DNA of 64,000 bases from an uncultured cyanobacterium (GCA_963803805.1 CAWDOD010000006.1:237561-301560), one strand, 5' to 3'; shown: positions 4,898 to 22,799, counted from the first letter of the stretch. Numbers and translations: made by a program. Notes: generated by a model not told the origin, from the sequence alone.

Positions 4898-6679
4898 ATG
4901 GCTAAGAAAAAATTTAGGCACTTTCTCTTGCCGACTTTTGGTGCGGCTATTTTACTTGGTGGTGGCACAGCAATTTATTGGTTACTGGTGCGGCCATATT
5001 TTTTTGCAGCGCAAAAGCTTACGGGGGCAGAGTTAGTCCCCCAAGAAGTTATTTTTGCTGCCTCAATTTCCACAGATGAGGAACAATGGCAGCAATTACA
5101 ACAGTTGGGAACCCCAGAAAGTCAACAGGTGATTAAGAAGCATTTTGGGGATCTTAAAAATACTTTCCTGCAATCCAATGGTTATAGCTATGAAACCCAC
5201 ATCCAACCTTGGGTAGGGCAAGAGATCACCATTGCCTATTTCGCAGCAACTCAATCTCCTTTAATTGTGCCGAATGCCCTTTCTTCAGAGAATTTGGGTA
5301 AGCCTATGGTGTTTATTTTACCTATGGAAAATCCAGTACAAGCAGGACAACTTTTGGATTCTCCTAACTCTGATACTGAAAGCAAAAAACTCCGCCGCAC
5401 CTATAAAGGAGTGGAGATTGAAGAAATTCAAAATAGTCAATCTCAAAAATACTCCCTGACTATTATCAAAAATTTTCTGGTTGTTGCTAATGATCCTCTA
5501 GTTATGGAAAAGGTGATTGATAGCTACCAACAAAAGACATCTTTAGAAGCTGATTCTAGTTATCAAAAGGCTTTAAGGCAGTTGGGAAAAAAAGTTGATT
5601 TTGCTCGTTTTTATGGGCATTTCCCCGCAATATTTGAGACGGCGGCTGCTAATTCTCTTTCTCCCCCTCCAGAATCTTCTAAGCAACATAGACAGGGAGT
5701 TACTGGTAGCTTAACTCTCACTTCAGAATCTCTGCATTGGCGAGGGATCATTTGGGGAAAACCGGGAGAATTTATGCAGCAAGTCAATTCTCCTGGAGAT
5801 TATTTAACCCAATTGAGGGAAAAGAGTTTAGCTTCCCGCTTACCTAAACAGACTTTGTTTTTCTTCTCAGGTAATAATCTGCCTGCACAATGGCAAGGTT
5901 GGGGTAGTGAGGCAGATTTGTTACCCCTTTTACCTGTCGGTGCAAATACTATCTCTAATTTTATCAACGAAAATACCGGGATGAGTTGGCAAGAAGATTT
6001 CCTCCCTTGGTTAGGAAAGGATTTCGCTTTAGCATTGACTCCTATTTCTGAAGATAGCTTAATTAATTTTACTGATAGCGGGGCTGTAGAATTGGGGGCG
6101 GCTTTAGTTACTGTTGCTCAAATTGAGGATCGTTCCCGTGGTGAAGTAGCCCTAAAAAAGTTGGATGAAGCAATGGGTGAAAGATCTCAGTTTCAGGTTA
6201 AATCTGCTCAACAAGCAGGGCAATCTGTGGTTAATTGGCAATCACCTTTAGGAGGTGTGGAAGCAGTACATGGCTTGCTACCACAAGATATATTTTTCTT
6301 TTCTTTAGGCGCTCCTATTAGTAATAAAATCTTACCAAAACCTCAGCCTAATTTACTGTCGAATAAGTTTTTTCAGCAAGTAGTAAAAAAAGGGGTTGCC
6401 CCTGTTAATAGTGAGTTATTTTTTGATGTCGAAAACTTTCTGGCTCAAAAAGGAACTTTAGCTTTCCCAGAAGGGCAAAAGAATTTACTTGAAGCTATTC
6501 GTGCTTTTGGTGTCACAACAACGGTTGTAGATGCTCAAAATACTCGCTTTGAAGCAATTTTCTTATTACAAAATATCTCTCCTAAACCTAATCTTCCTAA
6601 TTCATCAGAAGAGGATTCTGAACCAAAAAGTTCTCCTTTTCTTGAGGGTTCTCCTGTTGATAACAATTCTCGAAAATGA
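4898..6679 (+). CDS. DUF3352 domain membrane-anchored protein
   Basis: N-terminal TM helix; duplicated IQPWVGQE / FLPWLGKD motifs. Confidence 0.82.
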   Translation: MAKKKFRHFLLPTFGAAILLGGGTAIYWLLVRPYFFAAQKLTGAELVPQEVIFAASISTDEEQWQQLQQLGTPESQQVIKKHFGDLKNTFLQSNGYSYETHIQPWVGQEITIAYFAATQSPLIVPNALSSENLGKPMVFILPMENPVQAGQLLDSPNSDTESKKLRRTYKGVEIEEIQNSQSQKYSLTIIKNFLVVANDPLVMEKVIDSYQQKTSLEADSSYQKALRQLGKKVDFARFYGHFPAIFETAAANSLSPPPESSKQHRQGVTGSLTLTSESLHWRGIIWGKPGEFMQQVNSPGDYLTQLREKSLASRLPKQTLFFFSGNNLPAQWQGWGSEADLLPLLPVGANTISNFINENTGMSWQEDFLPWLGKDFALALTPISEDSLINFTDSGAVELGAALVTVAQIEDRSRGEVALKKLDEAMGERSQFQVKSAQQAGQSVVNWQSPLGGVEAVHGLLPQDIFFFSLGAPISNKILPKPQPNLLSNKFFQQVVKKGVAPVNSELFFDVENFLAQKGTLAFPEGQKNLLEAIRAFGVTTTVVDAQNTRFEAIFLLQNISPKPNLPNSSEEDSEPKSSPFLEGSPVDNNSRK

Positions 6680-7001
6680 TGACAGATTAATTCCTGTAGA
6701 AACTGGGTTACAAAAGTATATATTGATTAAGTAATATCACCACCCCAGTTGAGCTGATTTGACTATTTGCGATCGCTCCCAGTTCAACTAAAAATTCTGC
6801 TAGCCCAAATTCTCCAGTCTGGTTAATTGTTGGCTATGAAAACTTTAGTTTTAGCTCTTAGTCATTTATACTTGATACGAAAATGATTCTACTTTTTAGG
6901 GACATCTTAAATTTATTCTAAGGGCGATTCTCCAAGGTCAACCATTCTCCTTCAAAGAGGCTTTGCAAACGTGATCGCCCTTTAATTATCTCACTGTAGC
7001 T

Positions 7002-9743
7002 TTGATGAATAAAATCTTCCCAAAATTATCCCTAGTTGGTAGTTTAGCATTGAATTGTTTAGGTTTGAGCTTTCAAGTTCAAGCTCAAATAACCCCAGAT
7101 TCTACAGTTGGCACTCTTGTTAATAGTAGCAACGGTACTCCCTGTGTAGCTGCTATCTGCGCCATTACAGGGGGAAATCTCCAAGGTTCCAACCTCTTCC
7201 ATAGCTTCAGGGACTTTTCCCTAGTCGGAGGCAATACAGTCCAATTTAATAATGGTGCTGTAACCAATACTTTTGTCCGAGTTACGGGGGGACAAATTTC
7301 TAACCTTGATGGCATAATTAATGCTAGCAATACTACCAATTTATATTTACTTAACCCCAACGGTATTACCTTTGGCAGCAACGCCCAACTAAATATTAGT
7401 GGTTCTTTCTTTGCTAGTACCGCAGACAGAGTAACCTTCACCGATAATAGTTTTTTCAGCGCTACAGATACTAGCAATTCTGCCCTATTAACGGTAACTG
7501 CCCCAGTTGGTTTGCAGATATTTGCTAATCCTGGGGCTATCATTAATCGTTCTACAACTGGGTTAGCTGTTAATCCAGGTCAAAATATTACCTTGATTGG
7601 CGGTGATATTAGTTTAGAAGGAAGTAACTTGATTGCTCCAGGAGGGAAGGTACAATTAGTAAGTACCAGCAACAGCACTTTTAACCTCAACTCTATAGGG
7701 GCTGTTCCTAACCCTGGAAAAATCAGCTTAACTTCTGGTGCAACGGTTAACACTAGTGGTTTGGCAGGAGGAAAAATAACCCTCCAAGGTGGGGCTATTA
7801 ATCTGGATCAAGCATCTAGTTTAATCTCTGACACCTTCGGTAATTTACCCGGTGCAGGTATTGATATTCAAGCCACAGAATTTAAGCTAGAAGACCGTTC
7901 TTACCTTTCCTCCTCAACGTTTTTAGGTAATGCCAAGGCCGGGGATATTAACATCAATTCTTCAGTGGTAGAACTCAACGGAGCTGCCCCTAATGGCCTT
8001 AAAGATGAAATTAGATTAGGTACTTTTAATCCTTTAGCACTGCGAGATGGCTTGTATAGCTTTAGTGCAGGAGGCGGTGCTGCGGGCAAGGTTAAGATTA
8101 CCGCAAACCGATTACTATCTAAGGGTGGTGCAGCTATCCTCACAACTGCTTTTGCTAATGGTGCTGGGGGGGATATGGATTTCAACGTTACCGGATTAGC
8201 AGAAATTGATGAAGGTTCTATTTTCCTGGCTGGCACGGCTGGGGTAGGGGCTTCGGGGGTCTTTGAATTCACAGCAGGGCAGTTGCGCTTGCTTAACGGC
8301 TCAGTTTTCAGTACCACCCCTAACCAAATTAGTTCCGGCAAGGGTGGGGATATGACTATTAATGCAGGAAGCGTCGAAATTAGGGGAACGCCTGCCAATG
8401 CAACTGCTCCCGTAGGCTTGTTTACCACCACCCTTGGCGGAGGAGCCGCAGGTAACTTAAAAATTACAACAGGACAGCTTGTAGTAGCTGAAGGAGGGCA
8501 ACTTTCCTCTGCCACATCCGGGGCAGCTAAAGGTGGCAATCTTGATGTTATTGCGGATGTGGTTGATCTAAGGGGTATTTCACCAGATGGCATATTTTTG
8601 AGTGGTTTGTTCGCTTCTTCCTCTCTACTCACTGTGGGAGGACAACCGGGTAATGCCGCCGCAGGGAATCTTACTATTAATAGTAAACGAGTTAGTGTGA
8701 GGGATGGGGCGCAAATTTCTGTGGCAACAGGGGGAAGCAACCCAGCAGGGAGCATCTCCATTAAGGCTTCAGAATCAGTTGAAGTGTCAGGGTTTGCCAC
8801 AGGAGTAAATCCTTTTGTCGAAGCAGTTTCTTTTGGTGTCTTGGGTGATGGCATTGTCCCTAGTGCCATTGATTCTAATACCAGTGGTGCAGGGGCAGCC
8901 GGAAACATTGATATTCATACAAAAGATTTTAGGGTAGAAAATGGGGCAGAAGTTGGAGTAAGAGCTACTAGTACCGGTGGGGCTGGCAACCTTAATGTCA
9001 AAGCAAGGCGCATTCTTCTTGATAATCAAGGAACTATCTCCGCAGCAACAGTTACGGGGGCAGGGGGTAACATTCGTTTAAATGCTATAGGGATTATTCT
9101 GCGGCGTAACAGTCGTATTGCAACGGATGCTGGTAATGCAGATGGAGGCAACATCATCATGGAAACCGGCGTACTTGCAGCCCTAGAAAATAGTGATATT
9201 ACTGCCAATGCTCAACAAGGTAGAGGTGGTAGGGTGATTATTACGGCTGAAGGTATTTTTGGAACAGAGTTTCGTGCTTTCTTAACTCCCCAAAGTGACA
9301 TTACTGCAACCTCTGACCTCGGGCCGCAATTTAGCGGTGTGGTAGATATTACCACCTTGGGAGTTGACCCTAGTTCGGGACTTGTGGAGTTACCAGATGA
9401 AGTTGTTGATCCCACCGAACAAATTGCTGTTGGTTGTGCTACCTCTGCTGAAAGTCGCTTTATCATCACAGGTAGAGGGGGTTTGCCAGAAGATGCAGCA
9501 GGAACTATTCGAGGGGAAACTATATGGCAAGATTTACAAGATTTTTCTGGGGAAGAACAACTTAGCAACACTGTGCAGCCTCCCCAGGCAAATAATTCTT
9601 CTTCAACTACCGAACCTTTACCTGTTCAAGCAACAGGCTGGGTAGTTAATGAATCAGGAAATCTAGAATTAGTGGCGCATCTATCAGAAGCCGGTATTCA
9701 GGGATCATGGGCTGATGTACCGGAGTGTGGGGTGGGAAGTTAA
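7002..9743 (+). CDS. filamentous haemagglutinin family TpsA exoprotein
   Basis: signal peptide ending VQAQITPD; NLFHSF and LLNPNG secretion domain; Gly-rich beta-helix repeats; C-terminal FIITGRGGLP and QATGW motifs; ATG at 7005 is a possible start. Confidence 0.93.
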   Translation: MMNKIFPKLSLVGSLALNCLGLSFQVQAQITPDSTVGTLVNSSNGTPCVAAICAITGGNLQGSNLFHSFRDFSLVGGNTVQFNNGAVTNTFVRVTGGQISNLDGIINASNTTNLYLLNPNGITFGSNAQLNISGSFFASTADRVTFTDNSFFSATDTSNSALLTVTAPVGLQIFANPGAIINRSTTGLAVNPGQNITLIGGDISLEGSNLIAPGGKVQLVSTSNSTFNLNSIGAVPNPGKISLTSGATVNTSGLAGGKITLQGGAINLDQASSLISDTFGNLPGAGIDIQATEFKLEDRSYLSSSTFLGNAKAGDININSSVVELNGAAPNGLKDEIRLGTFNPLALRDGLYSFSAGGGAAGKVKITANRLLSKGGAAILTTAFANGAGGDMDFNVTGLAEIDEGSIFLAGTAGVGASGVFEFTAGQLRLLNGSVFSTTPNQISSGKGGDMTINAGSVEIRGTPANATAPVGLFTTTLGGGAAGNLKITTGQLVVAEGGQLSSATSGAAKGGNLDVIADVVDLRGISPDGIFLSGLFASSSLLTVGGQPGNAAAGNLTINSKRVSVRDGAQISVATGGSNPAGSISIKASESVEVSGFATGVNPFVEAVSFGVLGDGIVPSAIDSNTSGAGAAGNIDIHTKDFRVENGAEVGVRATSTGGAGNLNVKARRILLDNQGTISAATVTGAGGNIRLNAIGIILRRNSRIATDAGNADGGNIIMETGVLAALENSDITANAQQGRGGRVIITAEGIFGTEFRAFLTPQSDITATSDLGPQFSGVVDITTLGVDPSSGLVELPDEVVDPTEQIAVGCATSAESRFIITGRGGLPEDAAGTIRGETIWQDLQDFSGEEQLSNTVQPPQANNSSSTTEPLPVQATGWVVNESGNLELVAHLSEAGIQGSWADVPECGVGS

Positions 9744-9843
9744 GTAAATAGGTAATGGGTAATGGGTAATGGGTAAATCTACGCTGTTCCCAGCTTCCTG
9801 CTCCCTTCTGCATAGAAAACTTTAAGCAAATTGGATTAATATA

Positions 9844-12429
9844 ATGTTTCTCTGGGAAATTAAACGTACTGTTAAGTACTTGTTTGCAAGGACAGGCTTC
9901 AGTAAGGTTAAGTTTGTTGCTTGGGCGATCGCAACTTTATTTGTGGTGACATCTTTTATTCCTGCTGTGGCCCAAAGTCCTCCACTTCAACATAATCAAA
10001 TAGTACAAGTCAACCTTTTGCAACAAGGCAAACAGCTTTATGAAGGAGGAAGATTAGCTGAAGCTGCTACAACCTGGCAACAAGCACTGGATAACTATCA
10101 ACAACAAGACGCTACTCTTAAGCAAGTTCAAACCTTGAATTACCTCACCTTAGTTTATCAAGACTTAGGAAAATGGTCAGAAGCTAAAGAGGCGATCACC
10201 ACTAGTTTAACATTATTGCAAAGTCAGTCAGAATTAACCTCCATGGGTATTGCTTTGTGGGGGCAAACCTTAAACAATCAAGGGAGTTGGCAACTGGCTA
10301 GAGGACAAACTGAAGCTGCCCTGGAGACTTGGAAACAAGCGGCACAGAAATACCAAGAGGCGGGTAATGACCAAGGGAGGTTAGGAACTCAAATTAATCA
10401 AGCCCAAGCCCTGCAAGTTTTAGGACAGTATCGTCAAGCAAAATCCCTCTTAGAAAAAATTGAGCAACAATTGCAATCTCAACCAGATTCTTTACTCAAA
10501 GCTGATGGTTTGAGAAGTTTGGGGCGGGCTTTACAAACCGTTGGAGATCTGCGCCAAGCTAAGGTTATTTTAGAGGAGAGTTGGCAGATTAGCGATCGCC
10601 TCAATTCAACAGATGATGTGAGTGCCACAATTTTTAGTTTGGCTAACGTGGCTAGGAACTTAGGACAAGAACAAGTTGCCCTAGATTACTATCAAGAAGC
10701 GGCGAGGACGGCCCAAAATCCGATCATTGTTCTCCAAGCTCAATTAAATCAATTAAGCCTCTTGGTTGCTCAGGAAAGGGTGAATGATGCAACTCAGCTT
10801 ATACCCTCAATCAAAGCCCAAATCAAAAACTTACATCCCAACAGGGGTTTGGTTTATGCCAGGGTTAATTTTGCCGAAAGTTTGATGAAGTTTTCCTCCA
10901 GGGCTAATTATGACTCAGAAATTGCTCAGTTATTAGCAGAGGGAGTAAAAGAAGCCAAGCAACTACAAGATCCCCGTGCCGAAGCCGCAATACTTAACCA
11001 ATTAGGTAAACTTTATAGCCAAAAGCAACAATGGACAGAAGCTGGTGAAGTTACTCAACAAGCACTTTACATCGCCCAAACCATTAACGCTGATGATTTA
11101 ATCGCCCGTACTTCCTGGCAATTGGGTAAAGTATTTAAGCAAGAAAATAAAACCCAAAAGGCGATCGCCTCTTATCAACAAGCTTGGGAAACTCTACAAA
11201 AGTTACGCAGTGATCTTGTCTCCGTAAATTCTGATATTCAATTTGATTTTCAAGAAAGCGTTGAACCGGTTTACCGAGAATTAGTCAGTTTATTATTGCA
11301 AGCAGAGGATAATCAAGACAATCTGCAACAAGCCCGTCAAGTAATTGAAGCCTTGCAGCTAGCAGAAATAGAAGACTTCTTCCAAGAAGCTTGTTTAGAA
11401 GCTCGTCCGGTGGAACTTGAAAGCCTTGATGCTAAAGCAGCGGTTATTTACCCGATCATTTTAAGCGATCGCTTAGAAGTAATTCTTTCTTTACCAGATA
11501 AACCCTTAAAGCATTATGCCACTCAATTGGACTCCCAGAAAGTCAACAATATACTACAAAAACTATACTCTTCCTTCTATTTGGGGTATTCTAATGAAGA
11601 GCGGCTGCAACTTGCCCAACAGGTTTATGGCTGGCTAATCCAATCTGCGGAGGAAGACTTAGCAAGCAATAATATTCAAACCCTCGTGTTTGTCCTTGAC
11701 GGCTTCTTAAGAAGCTTGCCCATGAATGCCCTTTATGATGGTAAGCAATACTTAATCGAAAAGTATAGCATCGCTCTGAGTCCTGGGTTGCAACTACTAC
11801 CACAAGCACGTTCGAGAGCCAAACTCCAAGCCTTAACCGCCGGCTTAACCCAAGCTCGCGCTGGGTTTCCGCCCTTACCCGGAGTCGCCGTAGAAGTAGA
11901 ACAAATCTCTTCTGATTTGAATGACCCTAAAGTGATGCTAGATGAGAACTTTACCCGTCTTGCTTTCCAAAGCCAAATTCAAGCCAAGGACTTTGGCATC
12001 GTTCACCTAGCCACCCACGGGCAGTTTAGTTCTGATCCAGAACAGACTTTTTTACTCACTTGGGACGATCGGATTAAAGTGAAGGATTTTGCTCGTTTGT
12101 TCCAAGAAAAGGGTCAAGGAACCAAACCTGTAGAGTTACTTGTTCTTAGTGCTTGTCAAACAGCAGCAGGAGATCGACGAGCAGCCCTAGGATTAGCGGG
12201 ATTTGCCTTACGATCAGGAGCGCTCAGCACTGTAGCAACTCTCTGGTCTGTTAACGACCAGTCTACTGCTGAACTTATGAGCGAGTTTTATCAACAACTA
12301 ACCAAAGTTGATGTCAGTTTAACTAAAGCAGAATCTCTGCGTCAAGCTCAACTCAAGTTGTTGAAAAACCCTCTTTATAACCATCCCTATTATTGGGCCC
12401 CTTTTGTCTTAGTTGGCAACTGGTTGTAA
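9844..12429 (+). CDS. exported TPR-repeat CHAT (caspase-HetF-like) protease
   Basis: hydrophobic leader ending PAVAQ; TPR repeats; intact dyad IVHLATHG and VLSACQT; C-terminal HPYYWAPFVLVGNW. Confidence 0.95.
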   Translation: MFLWEIKRTVKYLFARTGFSKVKFVAWAIATLFVVTSFIPAVAQSPPLQHNQIVQVNLLQQGKQLYEGGRLAEAATTWQQALDNYQQQDATLKQVQTLNYLTLVYQDLGKWSEAKEAITTSLTLLQSQSELTSMGIALWGQTLNNQGSWQLARGQTEAALETWKQAAQKYQEAGNDQGRLGTQINQAQALQVLGQYRQAKSLLEKIEQQLQSQPDSLLKADGLRSLGRALQTVGDLRQAKVILEESWQISDRLNSTDDVSATIFSLANVARNLGQEQVALDYYQEAARTAQNPIIVLQAQLNQLSLLVAQERVNDATQLIPSIKAQIKNLHPNRGLVYARVNFAESLMKFSSRANYDSEIAQLLAEGVKEAKQLQDPRAEAAILNQLGKLYSQKQQWTEAGEVTQQALYIAQTINADDLIARTSWQLGKVFKQENKTQKAIASYQQAWETLQKLRSDLVSVNSDIQFDFQESVEPVYRELVSLLLQAEDNQDNLQQARQVIEALQLAEIEDFFQEACLEARPVELESLDAKAAVIYPIILSDRLEVILSLPDKPLKHYATQLDSQKVNNILQKLYSSFYLGYSNEERLQLAQQVYGWLIQSAEEDLASNNIQTLVFVLDGFLRSLPMNALYDGKQYLIEKYSIALSPGLQLLPQARSRAKLQALTAGLTQARAGFPPLPGVAVEVEQISSDLNDPKVMLDENFTRLAFQSQIQAKDFGIVHLATHGQFSSDPEQTFLLTWDDRIKVKDFARLFQEKGQGTKPVELLVLSACQTAAGDRRAALGLAGFALRSGALSTVATLWSVNDQSTAELMSEFYQQLTKVDVSLTKAESLRQAQLKLLKNPLYNHPYYWAPFVLVGNWL

Positions 12430-12470
12430 AGAGTTACTTTTATGTTCATCACCCATGAGGATTAATATCC

Positions 12471-13475
12471 ATGTTTAAATTACAAAGTTCTCTTTCTCGT
12501 CAGCTATTTTTCTTCATATTCACAGCCTTGATTGCTGTTGGTAGTAGTTTATCTCAATCCGCTTTTGCCCAAGCTACATCAAGTGAAGATAATCTAACTC
12601 CTGACATTAAATTTCAGCCCCCAGGAGATCCTGCTCCCGGTGGTGGTACAGGAGGAGCAAGTCGCGGTGATATTCAGTTTAAAGTCCCCGGAGAGCCTGC
12701 CCCCAGTGATACTACAGGGGGAGGAAGTCGTGGTGATGTCGAATTTCGTCCTGTGGGTGATCCCACCCCCGATAGTGCTACAGGAGGAGCAAGTCGTGGG
12801 GATCTTCAATTCCGTCCGGTGGGGGAACCTGCACCTAAAAGCAGTGTAGGAGGGGGCAGTCGTGGAGATTTGGCCTTTCGCCCAGTGGGTAAACCGGCCC
12901 CAGAAAGAACAGTGGGGGGAGGCAGTCGTAGCGATGATGCCTTAGCCAAAGTTGTTCCTTTACTCCCCAGCAATCAATACGGACATACCGTAGCATCTCA
13001 TCCGACTTTTTACGTTTACTTACCCACAAGCTCTGTTAAGCAAGTATTTTTCAGCATCCAAGATAAAAATAAGCAAAATCTCTACCAAACTACTTTAGAG
13101 GTTTCTGGCGAAGGGGGAATCCTTAGTTTTACTTTACCAGAAGATGCTCCAGAATTAGAGTTGGATAAAGATTATCAATGGTTCTTTGCAACCATCGAAC
13201 CAAAGGGTATTTTACGCCCTGATAATTATGGGGTAACTGGTTGGATAAAGCGAGTTGCGCCACCAACAGCAGCAGTTGCTGATGCAGATTTATCTGCCAT
13301 TGAACGTGCAGCTTTATATGCCAATGCCGGAATTTGGTACGATACCTTAAGCTTGATTGCTAGGGCCAAATTGGAGCAACCGAACAATAGTAGTTTGCAA
13401 GGTGAATGGCAAGACTTGTTGAAGCAAGTAGATTTAGATACAGTTGCAACTCAACCTTTGACAGAGCAGTTGTAG
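12471..13475 (+). CDS. exported DUF928 protein with five N-terminal 22-aa repeats
   Basis: signal peptide ending AFAQ; HPTFYVYLP, GIWYDTL and WQDLLKQV motifs. Confidence 0.92.
   Translation: MFKLQSSLSRQLFFFIFTALIAVGSSLSQSAFAQATSSEDNLTPDIKFQPPGDPAPGGGTGGASRGDIQFKVPGEPAPSDTTGGGSRGDVEFRPVGDPTPDSATGGASRGDLQFRPVGEPAPKSSVGGGSRGDLAFRPVGKPAPERTVGGGSRSDDALAKVVPLLPSNQYGHTVASHPTFYVYLPTSSVKQVFFSIQDKNKQNLYQTTLEVSGEGGILSFTLPEDAPELELDKDYQWFFATIEPKGILRPDNYGVTGWIKRVAPPTAAVADADLSAIERAALYANAGIWYDTLSLIARAKLEQPNNSSLQGEWQDLLKQVDLDTVATQPLTEQL
12606..12935 (+). repeat. 5 x 66-bp coding repeat, consensus hxFxPxGxPAPxxxxGG(A/G)SRGD
   Basis: units start at 12606, 12672, 12738, 12804 and 12870. Confidence 0.95.
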
Positions 13476-13504
13476 TGATTTGTCAAAGGTTAACTGCTGT
13501 TTTA

Positions 13505-13586
13505 CTCCCCCCTGCCTTCTCAAGGGGGAGAATCTAGCAAAAGCTTTCTAGCTTCCAGTCCCTCTTTGTAAGGGAAATTTAGGAAG
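13505..13586. repeat. degenerate cyanobacterial double-hairpin intergenic repeat (poly-C/poly-G stems)
   Basis: CTCCCCCT...AGGGGGAG stem, then a weaker TCCCT...AGGGA stem. Confidence 0.45.
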
Positions 13587-13679
13587 AGCAAGGAAGTGAT
13601 GAACAACAATTTTTTGCCATGTTGCTCATCAGCTATAGACTTAGACTTCTCAGTAGCTAACATAAAATGGTATGAGTCT

Positions 13680-13973
13680 GTGATCTTAGAAGTTGCGATT
13701 CTTGATGTTAAGCCTGGTTTGGGTGCTGAGTTTGAAACTGCTTTCCAAACTGCCTCAATCATTATTGCTTCCATGCCAGGGTATATTGCTCATGAACTTC
13801 AACGTTGTCTAGAAACTGCCAACCGATATATTTTGCTTGTACGCTGGCACAAGTTGGAAGATCATACCATTGGGTTTAGACAGTCCCCAGAATATCAAGA
13901 GTGGCGTTCTTTATTGCATCATTTTTATGAACCATTCCCAACGGTAGAACATTATCAATTGGTAATTATTTAA
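13680..13973 (+). CDS. antibiotic biosynthesis monooxygenase (ABM) family protein
   Basis: MILEVAILDVKPG...HTIGFRQSPEYQEW; GTG at 13680 preferred over the track start 13596. Confidence 0.88.
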   Translation: MILEVAILDVKPGLGAEFETAFQTASIIIASMPGYIAHELQRCLETANRYILLVRWHKLEDHTIGFRQSPEYQEWRSLLHHFYEPFPTVEHYQLVII

Positions 13974-14099
13974 TTTGGTTGGAAATCTCTCCTTACTAAA
14001 AAATAGCTGTGAACTTTTTGGAGAGTACTTGCGGAAAACTCCTATGGGTTTCTGTAGAAACTCAACAACGTTGAATCCCAAATACGAAAGCTCATCCCC

Positions 14100-14903
14100 A
14101 TGAACAAAAAGATTGTTTTAGGTAGTTTTTTAGCTAGCGGATTAATCGGTATCTCCTTGCTTACTGGTTGCGGAAATACAACCTCGAAACAAGCAATAGA
14201 ACCAGCAACCACAGAAGAAACAACCACTACCACAACTCAAGAATCTCCTCCTGTCCCACAAGCTAATTCCCCTGTCCCCGCCGCTTCTCAAGGGGCTAAG
14301 GGGAATGTTGCTAGTAACAGCATTAAGCAAACGGGAACAGAACTTTGTACCAATGCAGCAGGTGCAAGACCAACTATCGCTTATTATGAAACTAAAGGTT
14401 TTGAAGTATCTATCTGCGGCAGGGATGGCGATATTTATTACCACGGGGCTGATAAAAAGAATGGTAATGCTATAACTTTGCCTGCTAGCTATCGCAACGG
14501 TGCTGGTTATGTAGCCGTTAATGGCAAAACAACTTACATTATCAACCAATCTTCCCTAACTGTATTAGATAACGGCAAGGAAATCCTTAACCAAGCGGTT
14601 ATTACTGCCTCGGATTCAGAAACTGATGGTAATCAAGCTTATTGCCCCGATGCTGCTGGGGGAACACCTCAAATTGAATCCTATGAAACTAAAGGATTTA
14701 ATGTTTATCTCTGTGGCGGGGATGGAGAAATTTTCTATCACGGCGTTGATAAAAAGAATGGTAATGCTATAACTTTACCGGCTAGCTATCGCAACGGTGC
14801 TGGTTATGTAGCCGTTAATGGCAAGACAACTTACATTATTAACGAATCTTCCTTAACTGTGTTGAATAACGGCAAAGAAATCCTTAGTCAGCCTGTCTTA
14901 TAA
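14100..14903 (+). CDS. lipoprotein with two copies of an uncharacterised ~85-aa domain
   Basis: lipobox LTGC; internal duplication with 297-bp period. Confidence 0.85.
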   Translation: MNKKIVLGSFLASGLIGISLLTGCGNTTSKQAIEPATTEETTTTTTQESPPVPQANSPVPAASQGAKGNVASNSIKQTGTELCTNAAGARPTIAYYETKGFEVSICGRDGDIYYHGADKKNGNAITLPASYRNGAGYVAVNGKTTYIINQSSLTVLDNGKEILNQAVITASDSETDGNQAYCPDAAGGTPQIESYETKGFNVYLCGGDGEIFYHGVDKKNGNAITLPASYRNGAGYVAVNGKTTYIINESSLTVLNNGKEILSQPVL

Positions 14904-14957
14904 GTTTTTGGGAAAACTTAAGTCATATCGCCAAGTAACTCAATTAAGTCAAGAAAA

Positions 14958-15572
14958 ATGAACAAAAATATTATTCTCGGTAGTCTCATCGCTGGTGGAT
15001 TAATCGGCGCTGCTGTTATTATGGGTTTTGTCATGAGCAAACCTGATGCCCCACAACAAGCAGCTATTGAAACAGAAGCAACAGAAACTACAGAAGAAGT
15101 AGTAGAAGAGCAAAACACTTCCTCAACTCAAACTAATCAAACTGCTGTCCCCGCACCTGCCTCACAAGCCCCTGCCCCCGCAGCGCAAAAGGTAACCGCA
15201 CCTGCCGCACCTGCCTCAAAACCTGCCCCCGTAGCACAAGCACCCGTACCTACACACGCTCCAGTACCAAAAAAAGCTGTCTCTCAAGAGAATACTTCAG
15301 AAGGTTCAGAATTTTGCCCAGATAGAGCAGGAGGAGCGCCTCAAGTGGCTTTTTATGAAACGAAGAACTTTTATGTTTATATTTGTGATGTTGACCAACT
15401 CTATTACCATGGTGTAAGCAAAAAAGATGGTAATTTTATTAACCTTCCTGCTTACGCTGAAGAGGGAACAGGTTATGTAGCAGAAAATGGAGATTATACT
15501 TACATCATTAATGGTGCATCCCTAACTGTTATGCAAGGTGACAAAGTTCTTCAAGAAGAAAGGGTTTTTTAA
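14958..15572 (+). CDS. membrane-anchored paralogue with one copy of the same domain
   Basis: similar N-terminus; Pro/Ala stalk; YETKNFYVYIC...YYHG...GYVAENG. Confidence 0.85.
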   Translation: MNKNIILGSLIAGGLIGAAVIMGFVMSKPDAPQQAAIETEATETTEEVVEEQNTSSTQTNQTAVPAPASQAPAPAAQKVTAPAAPASKPAPVAQAPVPTHAPVPKKAVSQENTSEGSEFCPDRAGGAPQVAFYETKNFYVYICDVDQLYYHGVSKKDGNFINLPAYAEEGTGYVAENGDYTYIINGASLTVMQGDKVLQEERVF

Positions 15573-15673
15573 GAAAACTCCAAGAAAAGATTTATCTATT
15601 GGTAAGGATATTTTATTTATTGGAGTACTCTAAGAGTAAGAGATTTAAGAGATTGAAGTTATGGGGGCATCTA

Positions 15674-16462
15674 TTATTTGAAACGCACTAAATTAACTCG
15701 ATAACGCTTCTTTTTAGTAATCGCCACATCTCCCACTTCCAAACGCCCTTTACCCCGCACAGAAATTAAGTCTCCTGATTCTACATTATGACTAGGTTGT
15801 TTGACATCTTTCCAGTTGACTCGCACATCTCCTGAACTAATCGCTTCGGCCATCTTACTACGAGACATACCCAAACCCGCAGAGGCGATCGCATCTAAAC
15901 GTAGAGAAGCTTCTACGGTGGTTAGTTCTTTCTTTTTTGGGGGCCTAACTTTAAGTTCACTCAGTTCAATCCGTTTCGTTTTAACGGGAACAGAACGTAC
16001 TTGCATTAAAGCTGTTTCTAGAAATTCTCCTAATTCTGGTACGACAACAACTTGGGCCCCTCGTTCTCCTAAAACGATAATGTCTCCGACTTTTTCCCTA
16101 ACTACTCCTGTACCCAAAATTGCTCCCAAAAAGTCCCGGTGGTTAGCTGGGTCAAAAAGGAAGTTTCCTGCAATATCAAGGGCTTGTAGCTCAATTTGGC
16201 TCAGATCAGGGGGAACTTCTTCGCGGGCTATCCCCACTCTTTGCCTTTCGGCTTGAGGATACCCACCCCAAGCTACCATTTGCACTTCTGTTAAGCGATT
16301 AAAAATGCGTTCAACTTCTGCTAAAACAGGGGGAGATAAGAAGTCAGTTAAAGCCACTTCCCAATTTTTCAGAGAACGTTCAGCCAAATCAAGAACACGA
16401 GCAATACTCTCACGATCTTCAACCCCTTTTAATAGTTCTTCTCTCGGCAACATTTTAATCAA
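15674..16462 (-). CDS. photosystem II S4 domain protein (Sll1252/YlmH family)
   Basis: GGYPQAERQR, HRDFLGAIL and a C-terminal S4 domain (SLRLDAI...GKGRL). Confidence 0.92.
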   Translation of the reverse strand: MIKMLPREELLKGVEDRESIARVLDLAERSLKNWEVALTDFLSPPVLAEVERIFNRLTEVQMVAWGGYPQAERQRVGIAREEVPPDLSQIELQALDIAGNFLFDPANHRDFLGAILGTGVVREKVGDIIVLGERGAQVVVVPELGEFLETALMQVRSVPVKTKRIELSELKVRPPKKKELTTVEASLRLDAIASAGLGMSRSKMAEAISSGDVRVNWKDVKQPSHNVESGDLISVRGKGRLEVGDVAITKKKRYRVNLVRFK

Positions 16463-16605
16463 TTATTCAGTTATTCAGTTATCAGTGCTTGGACAAGCTT
16501 ACTAACCTCAGTAAAGATTGTCCTTTTTCCTTTACCCTTTCCCCCAAACTCAATACACTACAAAGAAAGTATATTCTTAAGTTTTTAGTTTTTAATTTTT
16601 AATTC

Positions 16606-17109
16606 TCAATCAGTATATCCTTGCATCTCCTCCGGGGTAAACCTTCGTAAAAGAGATGTTGCTTCATCAACCTGTTGTTCTGTACCTTGGACGACGATTA
16701 AATACTTACCTGCATTAAGACGGTTACGGTATGGTAAGGCATCACCACTTCCTAATGATAAACCTATTCCACCACCAACGAAAGCGCTGCCCATTGCTCC
16801 GGCGATCGCACCAAAGATACCACCAATAACATGATTGCCTAAAACTCCAACTCCACCGATGATATCTATTTTAGTGATGGAGTTGAAAGCAAAGCCAGCC
16901 AAAAAGCCAAAAGGTACTAGCCAAATTGCCATAAGCTTCGCTCTTTTTGTAGCTTGGGTATTAGGGTTAAGAAAGCCAAATTCATCAGCGCTTTTGTAAC
17001 CTCTTCCCAAAATACTAACTGCTTGGGACGGAAAGCCAGCTTTTTCTAGAGCAGTATAGGCTTCTTCTGCCTCCAAGCGATTTGGTAGTACAGCAACGAG
17101 ATAGTTCAT
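16606..17109 (-). CDS. conserved cyanobacterial membrane protein
   Basis: two Gly-rich TM segments inside a split soluble domain. Confidence 0.8.
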   Translation of the reverse strand: MNYLVAVLPNRLEAEEAYTALEKAGFPSQAVSILGRGYKSADEFGFLNPNTQATKRAKLMAIWLVPFGFLAGFAFNSITKIDIIGGVGVLGNHVIGGIFGAIAGAMGSAFVGGGIGLSLGSGDALPYRNRLNAGKYLIVVQGTEQQVDEATSLLRRFTPEEMQGYTD

Positions 17110-17326
17110 CCTTCTTAATAATCCTAGAAAACCCCAACGATGAGAAAATACAGTGTTAGGAACATAACAAGGAATATCATCTCATCTTAAGGGGACATTG
17201 AAATGGGAGAATGTGCTATTACTGCTGTTTTTTAAACGTCAACTTAATTTTTGTTTTCTTTTGTTCAAGTTATTGGAGTAACTTGAACAAACTGTACACA
17301 ACTTGCTCTTAACCCGTCTAGGTAAT

Positions 17327-18907
17327 ATGTCGAAGGTTCTTGTTTCAGACTCAATTGATCAAGCTGGAATTGATATCCTCTCCCAAGTTGCTCAAGTGGA
17401 TGTCCAACTTGGTTTATCCCCCGAAGAATTGGTTAAGGCTATTCCAGAATATGATGCTTTAATGATTCGTTCTGGCACGAAGGTAACAGAAGAGGTTATC
17501 GAAGCTAGTAATAATCTCAAAATTATTGGCCGTGCCGGAGTTGGAGTTGATAATATCAACATTCCTGGGGCCACTCGTAAAGGTATTGTGGTGGTTAATT
17601 CCCCTGAAGGTAATACCATCGCCGCCGCCGAACACGCTTTAGCGATGATGCTATCTTTGTCCCGGATGGTTCCTTCTGCTAACCAATCAGTTAAAAGTGG
17701 TAAGTGGGAACGTAAACGCTTTATTGGTTCAGAAGTTTATAAAAAAACTCTGGGTATCGTTGGTTTAGGTAAAATTGGTTCCCATGTTGCTGCTGCTGCG
17801 CGGGCAATGGGCATGAAATTATTAGCTTTTGATCCCTTTATTTCTGCTGAGAGGGCAGAACAATTAAATTGCCGTTTGGTGGATTTGAATTTACTGTTCT
17901 CAGAAGCAGATTATATTACCCTCCACGTTCCCAAAACGAAAGAAACTACTCATTTGATCAATGCTAAAACTTTAGGTCAAATGAAGCCCAATGCTCGGAT
18001 CATCAACTGTTCCCGTGGCGGTATTATTGATGAAGTTGCTTTAGCTGAAGCTTTGAGGGCAGAAACAATTGCTGGGGCAGCGTTAGATGTTTTTGAGGAA
18101 GAACCTTTAGGAGAATCTCTTTTAAGGGAATTTGGCTCTAATGTTATTCTCACCCCTCATCTAGGAGCCTCTACAACAGAAGCCCAGGTGAATGTAGCGA
18201 TAGATGTAGCAGAACAAATTCGCGACGTTCTCTTAGGGCTTCCAGCCCGTTCTGCGGTTAATATTCCTGGACTTAGCCCTGATGTGCTAGAGAAATTACG
18301 TCCTTACTTACAATTAGCAGAAACCTTGGGTAAGTTGGTAGGACAACTCGCTGGGGGCAGGATTGAATCTTTGAAGGTTAACTTGCAAGGAGAATTAGCT
18401 TCTAATCAAAGTCAGCCTTTAGTTATAGCTTCTTTGAAAGGTTTATTATCCCAAGCTTTGCGGGAACGAGTCAACTATGTCAATGCTGGCATTGAAGCTA
18501 AGGAACGAGGTATTAGAATTATTGAAACCAGAGATGCTGAAGTACGAGATTATTCTGGTTCCTTGCATTTATCTGCCCTTGGTTCTTTAGGAGAACATTC
18601 CGTTACCGGAGTCTTATTAGCCGACGGGGAAATGCGTATCACGAACCTTGATGAATTTCCTATCAATGTTCCTCCCACCAACAATATGTTGTTCACTTTG
18701 CACCGAGATATGCCAGGAATTATTGGTAAGATCGGTTCTCTATTAGGCAGTTTTAATGTCAATATTGCCAGTATGCAAGTAGGCAGAAAAATTGTCCGAG
18801 GGGATGCTGTAATGGCTTTGAGCCTAGATGATCCTTTGCCAGAAGGCATTTTGGCAGAAATCATCAAAGTTCCCGGTATACGGGATGCTTATACAGTAAC
18901 GCTCTAA
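17327..18907 (+). CDS. serA: D-3-phosphoglycerate dehydrogenase
   Basis: GRAGVGVDN, GLGKIG and TPHLGAST motifs; C-terminal ACT domain; ATG at 17327 preferred. Confidence 0.97.
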   Translation: MSKVLVSDSIDQAGIDILSQVAQVDVQLGLSPEELVKAIPEYDALMIRSGTKVTEEVIEASNNLKIIGRAGVGVDNINIPGATRKGIVVVNSPEGNTIAAAEHALAMMLSLSRMVPSANQSVKSGKWERKRFIGSEVYKKTLGIVGLGKIGSHVAAAARAMGMKLLAFDPFISAERAEQLNCRLVDLNLLFSEADYITLHVPKTKETTHLINAKTLGQMKPNARIINCSRGGIIDEVALAEALRAETIAGAALDVFEEEPLGESLLREFGSNVILTPHLGASTTEAQVNVAIDVAEQIRDVLLGLPARSAVNIPGLSPDVLEKLRPYLQLAETLGKLVGQLAGGRIESLKVNLQGELASNQSQPLVIASLKGLLSQALRERVNYVNAGIEAKERGIRIIETRDAEVRDYSGSLHLSALGSLGEHSVTGVLLADGEMRITNLDEFPINVPPTNNMLFTLHRDMPGIIGKIGSLLGSFNVNIASMQVGRKIVRGDAVMALSLDDPLPEGILAEIIKVPGIRDAYTVTL

Positions 18908-18915
18908 TTTGCAAC

Positions 18916-18959
18916 TAGAGACGCAGTATTGTTAATTATTGAAGATACTGCGTCTCTAC
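18916..18959. repeat. REP-like palindrome TAGAGACGCAGTAT...ATACTGCGTCTCTAC
   Basis: 14-bp perfect stem with 15-nt loop, just after the serA stop. Confidence 0.75.
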
Positions 18960-19002
18960 CAAGAAACTTGATTAAGCTGTTTGATATTTTAGATTACTTA
19001 TT

Positions 19003-19135
19003 GGGGAGCAGGGAACAGGGAACAGGGTATCTCCGCAGCGGAGACGTTTTGCGAACGCGTAAGCGTTGCCGTAAGGCTACAGGGAACAGTTATTTAATTA
19101 TCTTACCTATTACCCATTACCCATTACCTATTACT
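19003..19135. repeat. STRR tracts (GGGAACA, CCCATTA) with nested GC-rich mini-hairpin inserts
   Basis: heptamer run interrupted at about 19027-19078 by CTCCGCAGCGGAG and CGTTTTGCGAACG hairpins and the 21-nt repeat core. Confidence 0.7.
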
Positions 19136-19141
19136 TAAATC

Positions 19142-20032
19142 ATGGTCAATAGTTGGTGGGAAATCACAACTTTAGGCGATCCTTCCTTGGAAGATGTCAT
19201 CTTTTGGCGGTTGGATAAATTTGGCTGTCGCGGGACAGTTAGTCAGGTTAAGGGTACTAGTTTGTTAGTGCAGGGTTATATTCCCCAAATTAGCGCGGGC
19301 TTATTAGACTTGGCGGCTCTATCCTTGTGGTTACGACAGGATGCTTTGGTGATGGGCTTAAAACCGCCGATCACAAAATGGGATTTGATTGATGAAGAAG
19401 ACTGGGCGAGTAGTTGGAAAGAACATTGGCAACCCCAAGAAATCGGCGATCGCATTCTCATTTATCCTGCTTGGTTAACGCCCCCTACGGAGACAGAAAG
19501 ATTAGTTGTTAGACTTGATCCCGGCGCTGCCTTTGGTACGGGGATTCATCCTACTACCCAATTGTGTTTAGAATCTTTAGAAATGCGCTTAGGAGAAGGG
19601 GCTGAAGAGTTAGTTCTCGCTGATATTGGTTGCGGTTCGGGTATTCTTTCTATTGGTTCTCTTTTATTAGGTGCAGCACAGGTTTATGCAGTAGATGTTG
19701 ATCCCCTAGCTGTACGGGCAACTCGAAGCAATCGAGATTTGAATAATATTACACCCCAACGTCTCAAAGTTGGTAAGGGTAGCATTGAACTTTTAAAAGA
19801 AGAAAAAAAAGCAGCCGTTGACGGTATTGTCTGTAATATCCTAGCAGAGGTAATTATCGAGTTAATTCCGCCGATGACAGAGCTTGCAAAACCTACAACT
19901 TGGGGAATTTTCAGCGGTATTTTATTAGATCAAGTCAAGCCAATCGCTGATACTTTAGAACAGCATGGTTGGATTGTTGCAGCACTTTGGAAACGCAAGG
20001 ATTGGTGTTGTTTTAATGTTAGGAGAATGTAA
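19142..20032 (+). CDS. prmA: ribosomal protein L11 methyltransferase
   Basis: [24 protein letters not shown] and DIGCGSGIL motifs. Confidence 0.96.
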
Positions 20033-20462: not shown

Positions 20463-22799
20463 ATGTTGCAACAATTCAAACAGAAAATCACTCAATGGCG
20501 TGGTGTATTAGCGATCGCTCCTAGCGTAGCGGGAGTTATTATTGCTGGTAACTTAGTTGGCTTGTTCCAATTATTAGAATGGGCAACTTTAGATCAGTTT
20601 TTTCTTCTTCGCCCACAAGAAGCAGTTAATTCGCCCATTGTTATTGTTGCCATTGAAGAAGAAGATATCACTAAACTTGGTCAATGGCCCATGTCAGATC
20701 GAGTTATGGCTCAATTACTTAATAAAATCAAAGCCCAACAACCAAGGGGCATTGGTTTAGATATTTATCGAGATTTAGTCACTGAACCAGGACATTCAGA
20801 ATTAGTAGAAGTATTTGAATCTACCCCCAATTTAATTGGTGTACAAAAAGTCACACCACAAACAGTTGCTCCGCCACCAACTTTAGCAGAAAAAGGACAA
20901 GTAGGGGCTTCCGATTTAATAGTTGATGATGATGGTAAGGTACGTCGCGGGTTAATTGTTACTGGCACTGAGGAAGGAAAATTTATTGAAGGATTAGGGG
21001 CTAAATTAGCTTTAATGTATTTGGAAGCTGAAGGGCTTGAACTGCAAACTATTAATGAAGAAAAACAAATTTATCAACTAGGAGAAGCAACATTTGTCCC
21101 TTTAACCGGAGAAGAAGGAGGCTATGTCAAAGGAGATACGGGAGGATACCAAATCTTAATCAACTACCGGGGAGAAATGAATCGCTTCGGAAGTGTTTCG
21201 ATGACGGATGTTCTTGAGGATAAAATACCAGCAGATCTATTTCAGGATCGCTTAGTTTTTATCGGTTTAGGCATAAATACCTCTAGTGTTAAAGATATTT
21301 TCTTAACTCCCTATAACAGCAACTTATTGGGTGATACTGACTTAATGCCAGGAGTAGCAATTCATGCTAACTTAGCTAGTCAAATGGTTAGTGCCGCTAT
21401 GGAAGGACGTACAATGCTCCGGGCTTGGCATCAAAGCTTAAATTGGCTCTGGATATTGTTTTGGTCTTTTCTTGGGGCGGGGGGCAGTTGGTTTTTATTA
21501 GAGATTAAGTTATTTAAGAAAAATATCTTTTTAATCGTAACCATTAGCTACATTATTTCCAGTACTATTATTCTCGTAAGCATTAGCTATATTGCCTTTA
21601 TTTCTGGTTGGGTAATACCCATATTTTCTCCTTTTTTGGCCCTAGCAGCAACAGCAATTTTAATTGCCAACTATCATAATCAAAATCAGTTAAAAACTGC
21701 TAATGAAGAACTAGCCATTGCTAACGAACAATTAGCTGATTATTCCCGTACTTTGGAAAATAAAGTAGCAGCAAGAACTCAGGAACTTTCAGAAGCTTTA
21801 GAAAACTTAAAATCCACCCAACAAGAGTTAATTCAATCAGAAAAAATGGCTGCTTTGGGTCAACTTGTTGCGGGTATTGCCCATGAAGTCAATACTCCCT
21901 TGGGAGCAATTAAAGCCTCAGTAAGCAACATTTCTGCGGCTTTAACTAAGTCTATGCAACAACTACCAAAATTATTTAAGCAACTTCCTTTACAACAACA
22001 AGATGATTTCTTTACCTTAGTTGCAGCTAGCCAACAAGAGTCTACCACCCTTTCTTTTCGGGAAGAGCGGAAAATTAAACGTGCTTTGAAAAAGCAACTA
22101 GCAACTCTGGGTATTGATGATGCTGATGAAATTGCTGCTAACTTAGTGAAAATAGGTTTCACTAAAGAAGTAGAACCCTTTTTGCCTTTATTGCAATCTG
22201 ATTATAGTAGCTTGATTTTAGAAACTGCTTATAACCTCACGATGCAACAAAATAACACCGATAATATTAAGCTGGCGGTAGATCGGGCAGCCAAAATTGT
22301 CTTCGCCCTCAAAAGTTACGCCCGCCAAGATCAATATAGTGAGAAAGTTAAAGCCCAAGTAACAGAAGGAATTGAGCTTGTTCTAACCATTTATCGTAAT
22401 CAACTTAGACAAGGCATTGAAGTTAGTAAAGTTTACCAAGAAGTACCAGAAATTCCTTGCTACCCCGAACAACTCAATCAAGTTTGGACAAACCTAATCC
22501 ATAATGCAGTGCAAGCCATGGATAATAAGGGTAAGCTGAAAATAGCAGTAACCCCTGAAGATAGTTATGTGGTGGTGAGAATAACTGATTCCGGTTGTGG
22601 CATAGCCCCAGAAAACAAAGATAAAATTTTCCAACCTTTTTTTACGACTAAAGGTGCAGGAGAAGGAAGCGGTTTAGGGTTAGATATTGTCAGTAAGATT
22701 ATTGATAAGCATCAAGGCAAAATCGAAGTAGAAAGTGAACCAGGATGTACTACTTTTAGTGTTTGGTTGCCTGTAGTTATACCAGATTCGGGTGGGTAG
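20463..22799 (+). CDS. CHASE2 sensor histidine kinase
   Basis: GQWP, IGLDIYRD, DDDGKVRR and GVAIHA CHASE2 motifs; three TMs; H-box AHEVNTP; N, F and G boxes. Confidence 0.95.
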   Translation: MLQQFKQKITQWRGVLAIAPSVAGVIIAGNLVGLFQLLEWATLDQFFLLRPQEAVNSPIVIVAIEEEDITKLGQWPMSDRVMAQLLNKIKAQQPRGIGLDIYRDLVTEPGHSELVEVFESTPNLIGVQKVTPQTVAPPPTLAEKGQVGASDLIVDDDGKVRRGLIVTGTEEGKFIEGLGAKLALMYLEAEGLELQTINEEKQIYQLGEATFVPLTGEEGGYVKGDTGGYQILINYRGEMNRFGSVSMTDVLEDKIPADLFQDRLVFIGLGINTSSVKDIFLTPYNSNLLGDTDLMPGVAIHANLASQMVSAAMEGRTMLRAWHQSLNWLWILFWSFLGAGGSWFLLEIKLFKKNIFLIVTISYIISSTIILVSISYIAFISGWVIPIFSPFLALAATAILIANYHNQNQLKTANEELAIANEQLADYSRTLENKVAARTQELSEALENLKSTQQELIQSEKMAALGQLVAGIAHEVNTPLGAIKASVSNISAALTKSMQQLPKLFKQLPLQQQDDFFTLVAASQQESTTLSFREERKIKRALKKQLATLGIDDADEIAANLVKIGFTKEVEPFLPLLQSDYSSLILETAYNLTMQQNNTDNIKLAVDRAAKIVFALKSYARQDQYSEKVKAQVTEGIELVLTIYRNQLRQGIEVSKVYQEVPEIPCYPEQLNQVWTNLIHNAVQAMDNKGKLKIAVTPEDSYVVVRITDSGCGIAPENKDKIFQPFFTTKGAGEGSGLGLDIVSKIIDKHQGKIEVESEPGCTTFSVWLPVVIPDSGG

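Follow-up and report, generated by a model that had tools for sequence, protein, structure and literature searches.

Among described systems, the closest to the DUF928 protein encoded in a 64,000 nt stretch of DNA from an uncultured cyanobacterium (GCA_963803805.1, CAWDOD010000006.1:237561–301560; hereafter the window, with positions counted from its first letter) are MtxA of Magnetospirillum gryphiswaldense and the HetF/PatU3 pair of Anabaena PCC 7120. The DUF928 protein carries five tandem 22-residue cassettes, and its gene is located between those of an exported caspase-like protease, with tetratricopeptide repeats (TPR) and a CHAT domain, and of a CHASE2 sensor histidine kinase. MtxA (MGR_0208; PDB 4Z29) is exported, a CHASE2 adenylate cyclase gene comes directly after its own, and its ~117 N-terminal residues are flexible, crystals having been obtained only after trypsin removed them, according to passages of PMC4439547. 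The likeness to DUF928 thus comprises a C-terminal immunoglobulin (Ig)-like sandwich with TPR-like helices, export, and the adjoining CHASE2 gene; however, no sequence similarity between MtxA and DUF928 is detectable, and no CHAT partner is described for MtxA in those passages. HetF, a CHAT-domain protease, makes a Cys-dependent cut in PatU3 after R117 (R117/S118) and is, in the passages of PMC9457339 drawn on here, the sole cyanobacterial CHAT protease with a mapped site. A cyanobacterial CHAT-domain protease, a dedicated substrate and a cut after a single Arg are shared features of that pair and the present proposal, whereas HetF/PatU3 involves one cut site without a tandem array, PatU3 is unrelated to DUF928, and these passages name no CHASE2 partner (PMC9457339). 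CHASE2 has been described in fusion with caspase-like domains, without DUF928 or its motif in the parts of those sources used here (PMC3501461, PMC8195603). In the full-text literature searched, DUF928 itself appears in a single paper, through a Nostoc punctiforme cluster with CHASE2 and DUF928 genes and through sll1891 in the acid-stress response (PMC5587647). The Sinorhizobium NsrA/CyaK peptidic signal was considered as a parallel and is not built upon, since the available passages never use the word CHASE2 (PMC7529298).

In a literature search over main article texts, no paper had ‘CHASE2’ and ‘CHAT domain’ in combination. Yeast alpha-factor, processed by Kex2, exemplifies propeptide precursors built of tandem repeats, in which several near-identical units within one exported precursor each end at a basic residue; this is the kind of mechanism that the preliminary description of this DNA envisaged for the array. 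The DUF928 protein differs in having a single Arg in a Gly context instead of a dibasic site, a large conserved domain after the units, and a candidate protease of clan CD instead of a subtilisin. Likewise, the TPR-CHAT protease Csx29 of the type III-E CRISPR system (Craspase) cuts a dedicated co-encoded substrate, Csx30; however, Craspase is a cytoplasmic, RNA-guided immune system and does not cut at Arg.

The DUF928 gene of the window has the following parts.

12471–13475, plus strand: DUF928 gene, 334 aa, comprising signal peptide, five cassettes and DUF928 domain
12471–12569, plus strand: predicted signal peptide, about residues 1–33, from a reading of the sequence; helix at residues 9–23 in the AlphaFold2 (AF2) model
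12606–12935, plus strand: five tandem 22-residue cassettes, residues 46–155, each ending G-G-x-S-R-(G/S)-D
12915–13460, plus strand: DUF928 domain, residues 149–330, predicted beta-sandwich followed by four helices; Pfam E 9.3e-53

The N-terminus has a hydrophobic core followed by A-F-A-Q and thus resembles a Sec-type signal. Positions 12606–12935 contain exactly 5 × 66 nt, head-to-tail and in frame, as the preliminary description of this DNA had proposed. Nine of the 22 cassette columns are invariant over the five units (F3, G7, P9, P11, G16, G17, S19, R20 and D22), in agreement with the residues named there (F, G, the second P, GG and SR). When the 110 array residues were shuffled, none of 100,000 permutations reached nine invariant columns and the maximum was two. 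Between units, pairwise identity is 50–76 % at the nucleotide and 50–73 % at the amino-acid level. Synonymous differences are near saturation (proportion pS 0.35–0.82 per site), and the ratio of nonsynonymous to synonymous divergence (dN/dS) is 0.08–0.53 in the 8 of 10 pairs with computable dS. Low dN/dS together with diverged synonymous sites indicates that the units are old duplicates under purifying selection on the protein, which upholds the selection previously claimed. At the DNA level, Tandem Repeats Finder detects merely 1.9 copies (12700–12823, 77 % matches), so the repeat is essentially a protein-level feature.

The domain matches DUF928 (Pfam PF06051) with 179.2 bits against a cut-off of 26, over profile positions 2–184 of 184. 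Located between signal peptide and domain, and outside the Pfam model, an F..P..P..GG.R motif is a habit of the DUF928 family; the protein of the window has five copies. Its closest homologue, at 84 % identity, shares all five units. A clade sample of 191 non-identical proteins was assembled from the best 120 of 354 database homologues and the DUF928 genes found in 80 related loci. Among those best 120 homologues, it is usual to find arrays with a period of ~22 residues. In the clade sample a unit profile found 827 units in 187 proteins: none in 4 proteins, one in 18, two in 11, three in 23, four in 50, five in 39, six in 24, seven in 9, eight in 5, nine in 6, ten in 1 and twelve in 1. Two to twelve units are thus present in 169 of these 191 close homologues, four to five being commonest, and the five copies of the window are ordinary for the clade and near its mode. 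The wider family comprises 7,026 representatives at E ≤0.001, and 139 of the best 150 were new. The strict profile finds one unit in 84 of these 139, at least two in 12 and none in 43; 123 contain the motif in a loose form. The statement that DUF928 proteins usually carry one copy of the motif therefore holds for the wider family and fails for this clade.

Across 566 in-register units the consensus is V-x-F-x-x-P-G-D-x-A-P-x-x-S-x-G-G-G-x-R-G-(D/N/E), with P11 at 99 %, G17 at 93 % and G18 at 86 %; F3 and R20 define the register and so cannot be scored within this set. Pro also occupies position 6 in 96 % of units, versus Val in units 3–5 of the window (12738–12935) and in the same units of the two closest homologues. 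When the register is not forced, at least 797 of the 827 units end in Gly followed by Arg. Conservation of F3, P6, P11, the Gly triplet and R20 is complete or at least 90 % in 15 single-copy relatives, and the Arg is present in 15 of 15. The Arg is accordingly kept across homologues, a point on which the preliminary description had staked its reading of the array as a protease substrate. The ‘SR’ that it took for a conserved feature is a lineage detail, since the residue preceding Arg is T in 36 %, V in 27 %, S in 25 % and I in 9 % of units. The R-G-D triplet at unit ends was considered as a meaningful motif and rejected as incidental, D being present at position 22 in 37 % of units.

The array varies in copy number among close relatives: six Coleofasciculus loci have 6 to 13 G-G-x-R motifs. 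Units are more alike within a protein than between proteins (identity 0.59 versus 0.30 at 13 variable positions), and adjacent units more alike than non-adjacent ones (0.64 versus 0.56). The last unit is distinctive, with G21 in 45 % compared with 94–98 % in the others, and the last unit of the window has S at this position. The array starts a median of 22 residues past the hydrophobic core of the signal peptide, and the distance from the last cassette Arg to the first conserved strand of the domain is fixed at 23 residues (quartiles 23–25). In a FastTree phylogeny of 329 DUF928 domains the single- or multi-copy state changes at least 17 times, a rough count from an unrooted tree with fragments included and support unexamined. 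The five cassettes probably arose by tandem amplification of an ancestral N-terminal DUF928 motif. A Cys is located within 8 residues after the Arg in 101 of the 123 loose-motif proteins, and a second Cys is often close by; the multi-cassette clade, to which the protein of the window belongs, is without these Cys residues seen in single-copy forms. The cassette profile matches DUF928 proteins only, in the window's own genome and the 80 loci. No match to PDB chains was found at E up to 10, and ESM Atlas, with DUF928 clusters set aside, had no usable match to the cassette region.

An AF2 model built from 41 sequences gives residues 160–330 a predicted local distance difference test (pLDDT) score mostly above 90, with seven strands and four helices. 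Residues 59–117 and 119–155, which cover cassettes 2–5, score below 50, and these cassettes are predicted to be disordered. Lying in such a tail between signal peptide and folded domain, the cassettes should be exposed in the periplasm. Residues 39–58 fall outside the segments below 50 in the first AF2 model. Docking of a cassette on its own domain was considered, with mean pLDDT 81 and 69 for residues 41–50 and 51–60, but was rejected, as a single-cassette control relative scores 57–67 for its cassette. The top structural match of the modelled domain is the MtxA C-terminal domain (4z29; Z 10.1, root-mean-square deviation 4.0, 149 of 169 residues aligned), the next match having Z 7.5. A single-cassette relative likewise gives 4z29 with Z 9.9 (151 of 176 aligned; next match 7.3). 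By these models the DUF928 domain is an MtxA-like fold over its whole length. Foldseek on PDB returned generic Ig, FN3 and CBM sandwiches at E ~1e-4, MtxA being outstanding only after re-alignment, and a profile of 41 DUF928 proteins gave 0 matches to PDB, MtxA included, at E up to 1.

The genes proposed to act with the DUF928 gene, and that of a possible exporter of the TPS protein, are listed below.

7002–9743, plus strand: TPS-domain exoprotein (two-partner-secretion type), 913 aa; Pfam TPS E 8.3e-38, NCBIfam filamentous hemagglutinin N-terminal domain
9844–12429, plus strand: exported TPR-CHAT caspase-like protease, 861 aa; Pfam CHAT E 8.5e-63, TPR_12 E 4.6e-24
20463–22799, plus strand: CHASE2 sensor histidine kinase, 778 aa; Pfam CHASE2 E 1.4e-65, HATPase_c E 2.5e-27
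34446–36245, minus strand: ShlB/FhaC-type TpsB transporter; Pfam ShlB E 3.1e-34, POTRA_2 E 1.3e-21

The stop of the CHAT gene and the start of the DUF928 gene are 41–42 nt apart. The 80 related loci, taken from public genomes, were annotated with paralogue profiles from the window's own genome and in part checked with Pfam. Their same-strand order is TPS, TPR-CHAT, DUF928, CHASE2, and the intergenic gaps are often below 100 nt or the genes overlap. Counts of neighbours are restricted to genes with enough flank, at least 7 kb for TPS. Of 73 DUF928 genes, 64 have an exported TPR-CHAT gene as their immediate upstream neighbour on the same strand, so the co-occurrence that was to be checked is borne out. 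CHASE2 follows directly downstream in 65 of 72; it is the most constant partner and was missed in the preliminary description. Both neighbours are present in 53 of 65 DUF928 genes, and a TPS gene lies upstream in 42 of 59 loci. The 33 scanned CHASE2 partners comprise 7 with HATPase_c only, 7 hybrid kinases, 6 kinase-receiver-cyclase proteins, 10 SpoIIE phosphatases and 3 cyclases; with five output architectures, the sensor domain is the constant element. In the window, the TPS, CHAT and DUF928 genes are contiguous and the CHASE2 gene is on the same strand, 7 kb downstream. Over its full length, this kinase shares 57 % identity with the one directly after DUF928 in the closest locus (L018). Judged by this identity, it is the displaced orthologous fourth gene of the module, which has been split by rearrangement.

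The CHAT domain occupies residues 590–859 of the 861-aa protein, which also has TPR repeats and a signal-like N-terminus. It belongs to the CHAT proteases (Pfam PF12770, clan CD) by its profile match (E 8.5e-63) and its catalytic His and Cys; all 40 of the orthologues compared share H721, H725 and C771, and the L-S-A-C-Q-T motif attributed earlier to an adjacent exported CHAT protein is present. Of 67 orthologous CHAT open reading frames (ORFs), 61 have a hydrophobic segment at the N-terminus, apparently a signal, that ends in a P-A-(I/V)-A-like sequence. Cleavage after Arg by this protease is plausible, given its intact catalytic dyad, its export and the cut that HetF makes after Arg.

The DUF928 protein forms the third part of a conserved extracytoplasmic module consisting of TPS exoprotein, exported TPR-CHAT, DUF928 and a CHASE2 membrane sensor. 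In the mechanism considered likeliest, the exported CHAT protease would recognize the cassettes and cut after their invariant Arg, and the partner kinase may then sense, through its periplasmic CHASE2 domain, either the processing state of DUF928 or freed 22-residue fragments. Each additional cassette would supply a further cut site, or further ligand, on the same molecule. That the co-encoded CHAT protease cuts the cassettes after Arg and that CHASE2 reads the result is held tentatively, as quite possible but somewhat short of probable. The repeat, the selection on it, its family-wide conservation and its disorder are observed or predicted properties, as are the order of the genes, the preserved catalytic residues and the signals for export; from these we infer cleavage, the position of the cut and any effect on CHASE2. 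Reading of the cassettes by CHAT is favoured by the tight linkage, by an invariant Arg in a flexible Gly-rich context and by the HetF precedent. DUF928 paralogues of the same genome that are located beside Peptidase_S9 genes or CHAT-CHASE2 fusions were also counted in its favour. The earlier reading of the array as a CHAT substrate is thus partly supported, and 22-mer peptides may be released.

Several observations weigh against this combination of CHAT cleavage and CHASE2 reading. Four loci (L062, L075, L076 and L089) have a multi-cassette DUF928 gene and CHASE2 with no CHAT gene in the ~10 kb upstream flank; their genomes have 1 to 8 full-length TPR-CHAT genes elsewhere. Paralogues beside CHASE2 cyclases in the window's own genome keep a degenerate motif with no adjacent CHAT. 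The residue before Arg is not fixed, and there is no acidic P4 as in separase sites. Additionally, many homologues have a second Arg or Lys at position 12, so Arg alone cannot define a cut site. In a mirror-tree comparison of cassette variable positions over 39 non-redundant loci, controlled for divergence of the DUF928 domain, cassette divergence is uncorrelated with that of CHAT (partial r −0.11) or of the TPR region (−0.02). It follows that of CHASE2 (partial r 0.28, p 0.002; Spearman 0.42; 0.35 when thinned to 23 loci), mostly between receptor classes, the value being 0.00 within the ~700-aa class, while within the ~1120-aa class CHAT and CHASE2 both give 0.43. This covariation is a correlation among related sequences and no proof of contact. 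Consensus types of the cassettes reappear in other genera together with the same CHASE2 architecture, and paralogous modules within one genome have unlike types, so the ‘variable core’ is constrained per module.

In an alternative reading, the cassettes are uncut, multivalent CHASE2-binding motifs, that is, tethered ligands, with DUF928 as a co-sensor and CHAT acting elsewhere, for example on the TPS exoprotein. DUF928 and CHASE2 form the most constant pair, 5 of 10 DUF928 paralogues in the window's genome adjoin CHASE2 whatever its output domain, and arrays persist without an adjacent CHAT gene. The divergence of the cassettes follows CHASE2 instead of CHAT, their consensus types match CHASE2 architecture classes across genera, and the TPS proteins have a conserved Arg-Gly motif of their own near the C-terminus. 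However, the covariation lies mainly between receptor classes and in one class is equal for CHAT and CHASE2, and tethered ligands would leave no role for the near-universal protease gene just upstream of DUF928. This alternative is considered rather doubtful.

A different partner is suggested by the TPR part of the protease, which matches the peptide-binding TPR modules of LGN/Pins and kinesin light chain at E ~1e-12. Linear motifs that are short and rich in Pro are typical ligands of TPRs. With the tight gene linkage, this is consistent with cassettes that serve as docking motifs for the TPR region, DUF928 being an adaptor, regulator or inhibitor instead of a substrate. The lack of cassette-TPR covariation noted above makes this unlikely, as does the retention of the motif in paralogues with TPR-less neighbours (CHASE2 cyclases and Peptidase_S9), and the invariant Arg would be left unexplained.

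Within the reading in which CHAT cuts and CHASE2 responds, a stronger version would make the array a polyprotein-like precursor, from which CHAT frees 22-residue periplasmic or released peptides whose module-specific core is the ligand of the partner CHASE2 receptor. This version is decidedly improbable. If true, signal gain would depend on copy number, and the many paralogous modules of one genome would be insulated from each other by the core sequence.

The array could also be an extended Pro/Gly-rich spacer, passive in itself, whose length is tuned by copy number and determines how far the DUF928 domain reaches across the periplasm. Predicted disorder, free variation of copy number among close relatives, and homogenization of units within proteins would all suit a spacer. 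A spacer would not need five near-invariant positions over hundreds of proteins, nor a motif that recurs in single-copy forms; dN/dS lies well below 1, and orthologous modules from different genera conserve the ‘variable’ positions, so that this explanation is very unlikely. That DUF928 is a precursor of several core peptides like those of ribosomally made peptides that are modified after translation (RiPPs) is scarcely credible: tandem similar short units behind a leader-like N-terminus are its sole support, the leader is an ordinary Sec-type signal peptide by its sequence, a large conserved folded domain follows the units, and no RiPP maturation enzyme family was found among the Pfam-scanned neighbours here or at paralogue and related loci.

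CHASE2 sensor domains feed kinases, phosphatases and cyclases in many bacteria, and the literature covered here, in part as passages, names no ligand for them. To our knowledge, exported CHAT proteases have no known substrates and neither DUF928 nor MtxA has an assigned function. The cassette is short, near-invariant and Arg-centred, is located in a predicted disordered tail, and is encoded between a protease gene and a sensor gene; one defined peptide is thus a candidate for both partners. Should either link, to CHAT or to CHASE2, prove true, it would provide a first input mechanism for the module and a handle on the specificity of its paralogues. If neither is true, the protein is an ordinary member of a repeat-bearing clade in the DUF928 family.

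Of the 53 genomes sampled in this cyanobacterial class, 44 encode DUF928, with as many as 20 copies in one genome. The window's own genome gave 10 matches to DUF928, 39 to CHAT, 18 to TPS, 7 to ShlB and 10 CHASE2 ORFs. Two of its DUF928 paralogues adjoin Peptidase_S9 genes (L011 and L013), and three are located beside CHAT-CHASE2 fusions (L012, L015 and L017), with DUF1822 near L012 and L017. With Peptidase_S9 and CHAT neighbours, the DUF928 family keeps company with proteases of unrelated families.

Between the DUF928 and CHASE2 genes (13596–20032) are genes for an ABM monooxygenase, two lipoprotein-like paralogues, a YlmH/S4 protein, serA and prmA. The paralogues, ORFs 14100–14903 and 14958–15572, appear exported or lipoprotein-like and have two copies versus one of a repeated segment of ~90 residues; they match no Pfam family above cut-off, the weak match being to Gp22 (E 4.4e-4). 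After the CHASE2 kinase there is a short nSTAND1/AAA-type NTPase ORF (23131–24204), followed by an ORF of 806 aa (24211–26631) without a Pfam match. The DUF3352 gene upstream of TPS (4898–6679) was considered as a module member and rejected, as the own-genome profile finds none in the 80 loci. The TPS protein's nearest possible exporter gene is the ShlB/FhaC-type TpsB gene, which lies at a distance of 25 kb on the opposite strand and adjoins a DDE transposase gene (33501–34412). Scans of 6500–14200 for promoters and terminators gave counts no higher than those in shuffles. In metatranscriptome X5, two 151-nt contigs, each at least 99 % alike, lie over 12145–12449, which takes in the CHAT gene's 3′ end and the greater part of the 41-nt spacer ahead of DUF928; the cassettes are uncovered.

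The 46 module TPS proteins, including the C-terminus of the protein in the window (9300–9743), have a common C-terminal block with a motif around T-G-R-G-G-L-P-x-D-P. This block opens with a Cys, has a second Cys near the terminus and contains its own conserved Arg-Gly pair, which, on its sequence, could be another candidate target of the CHAT protease.

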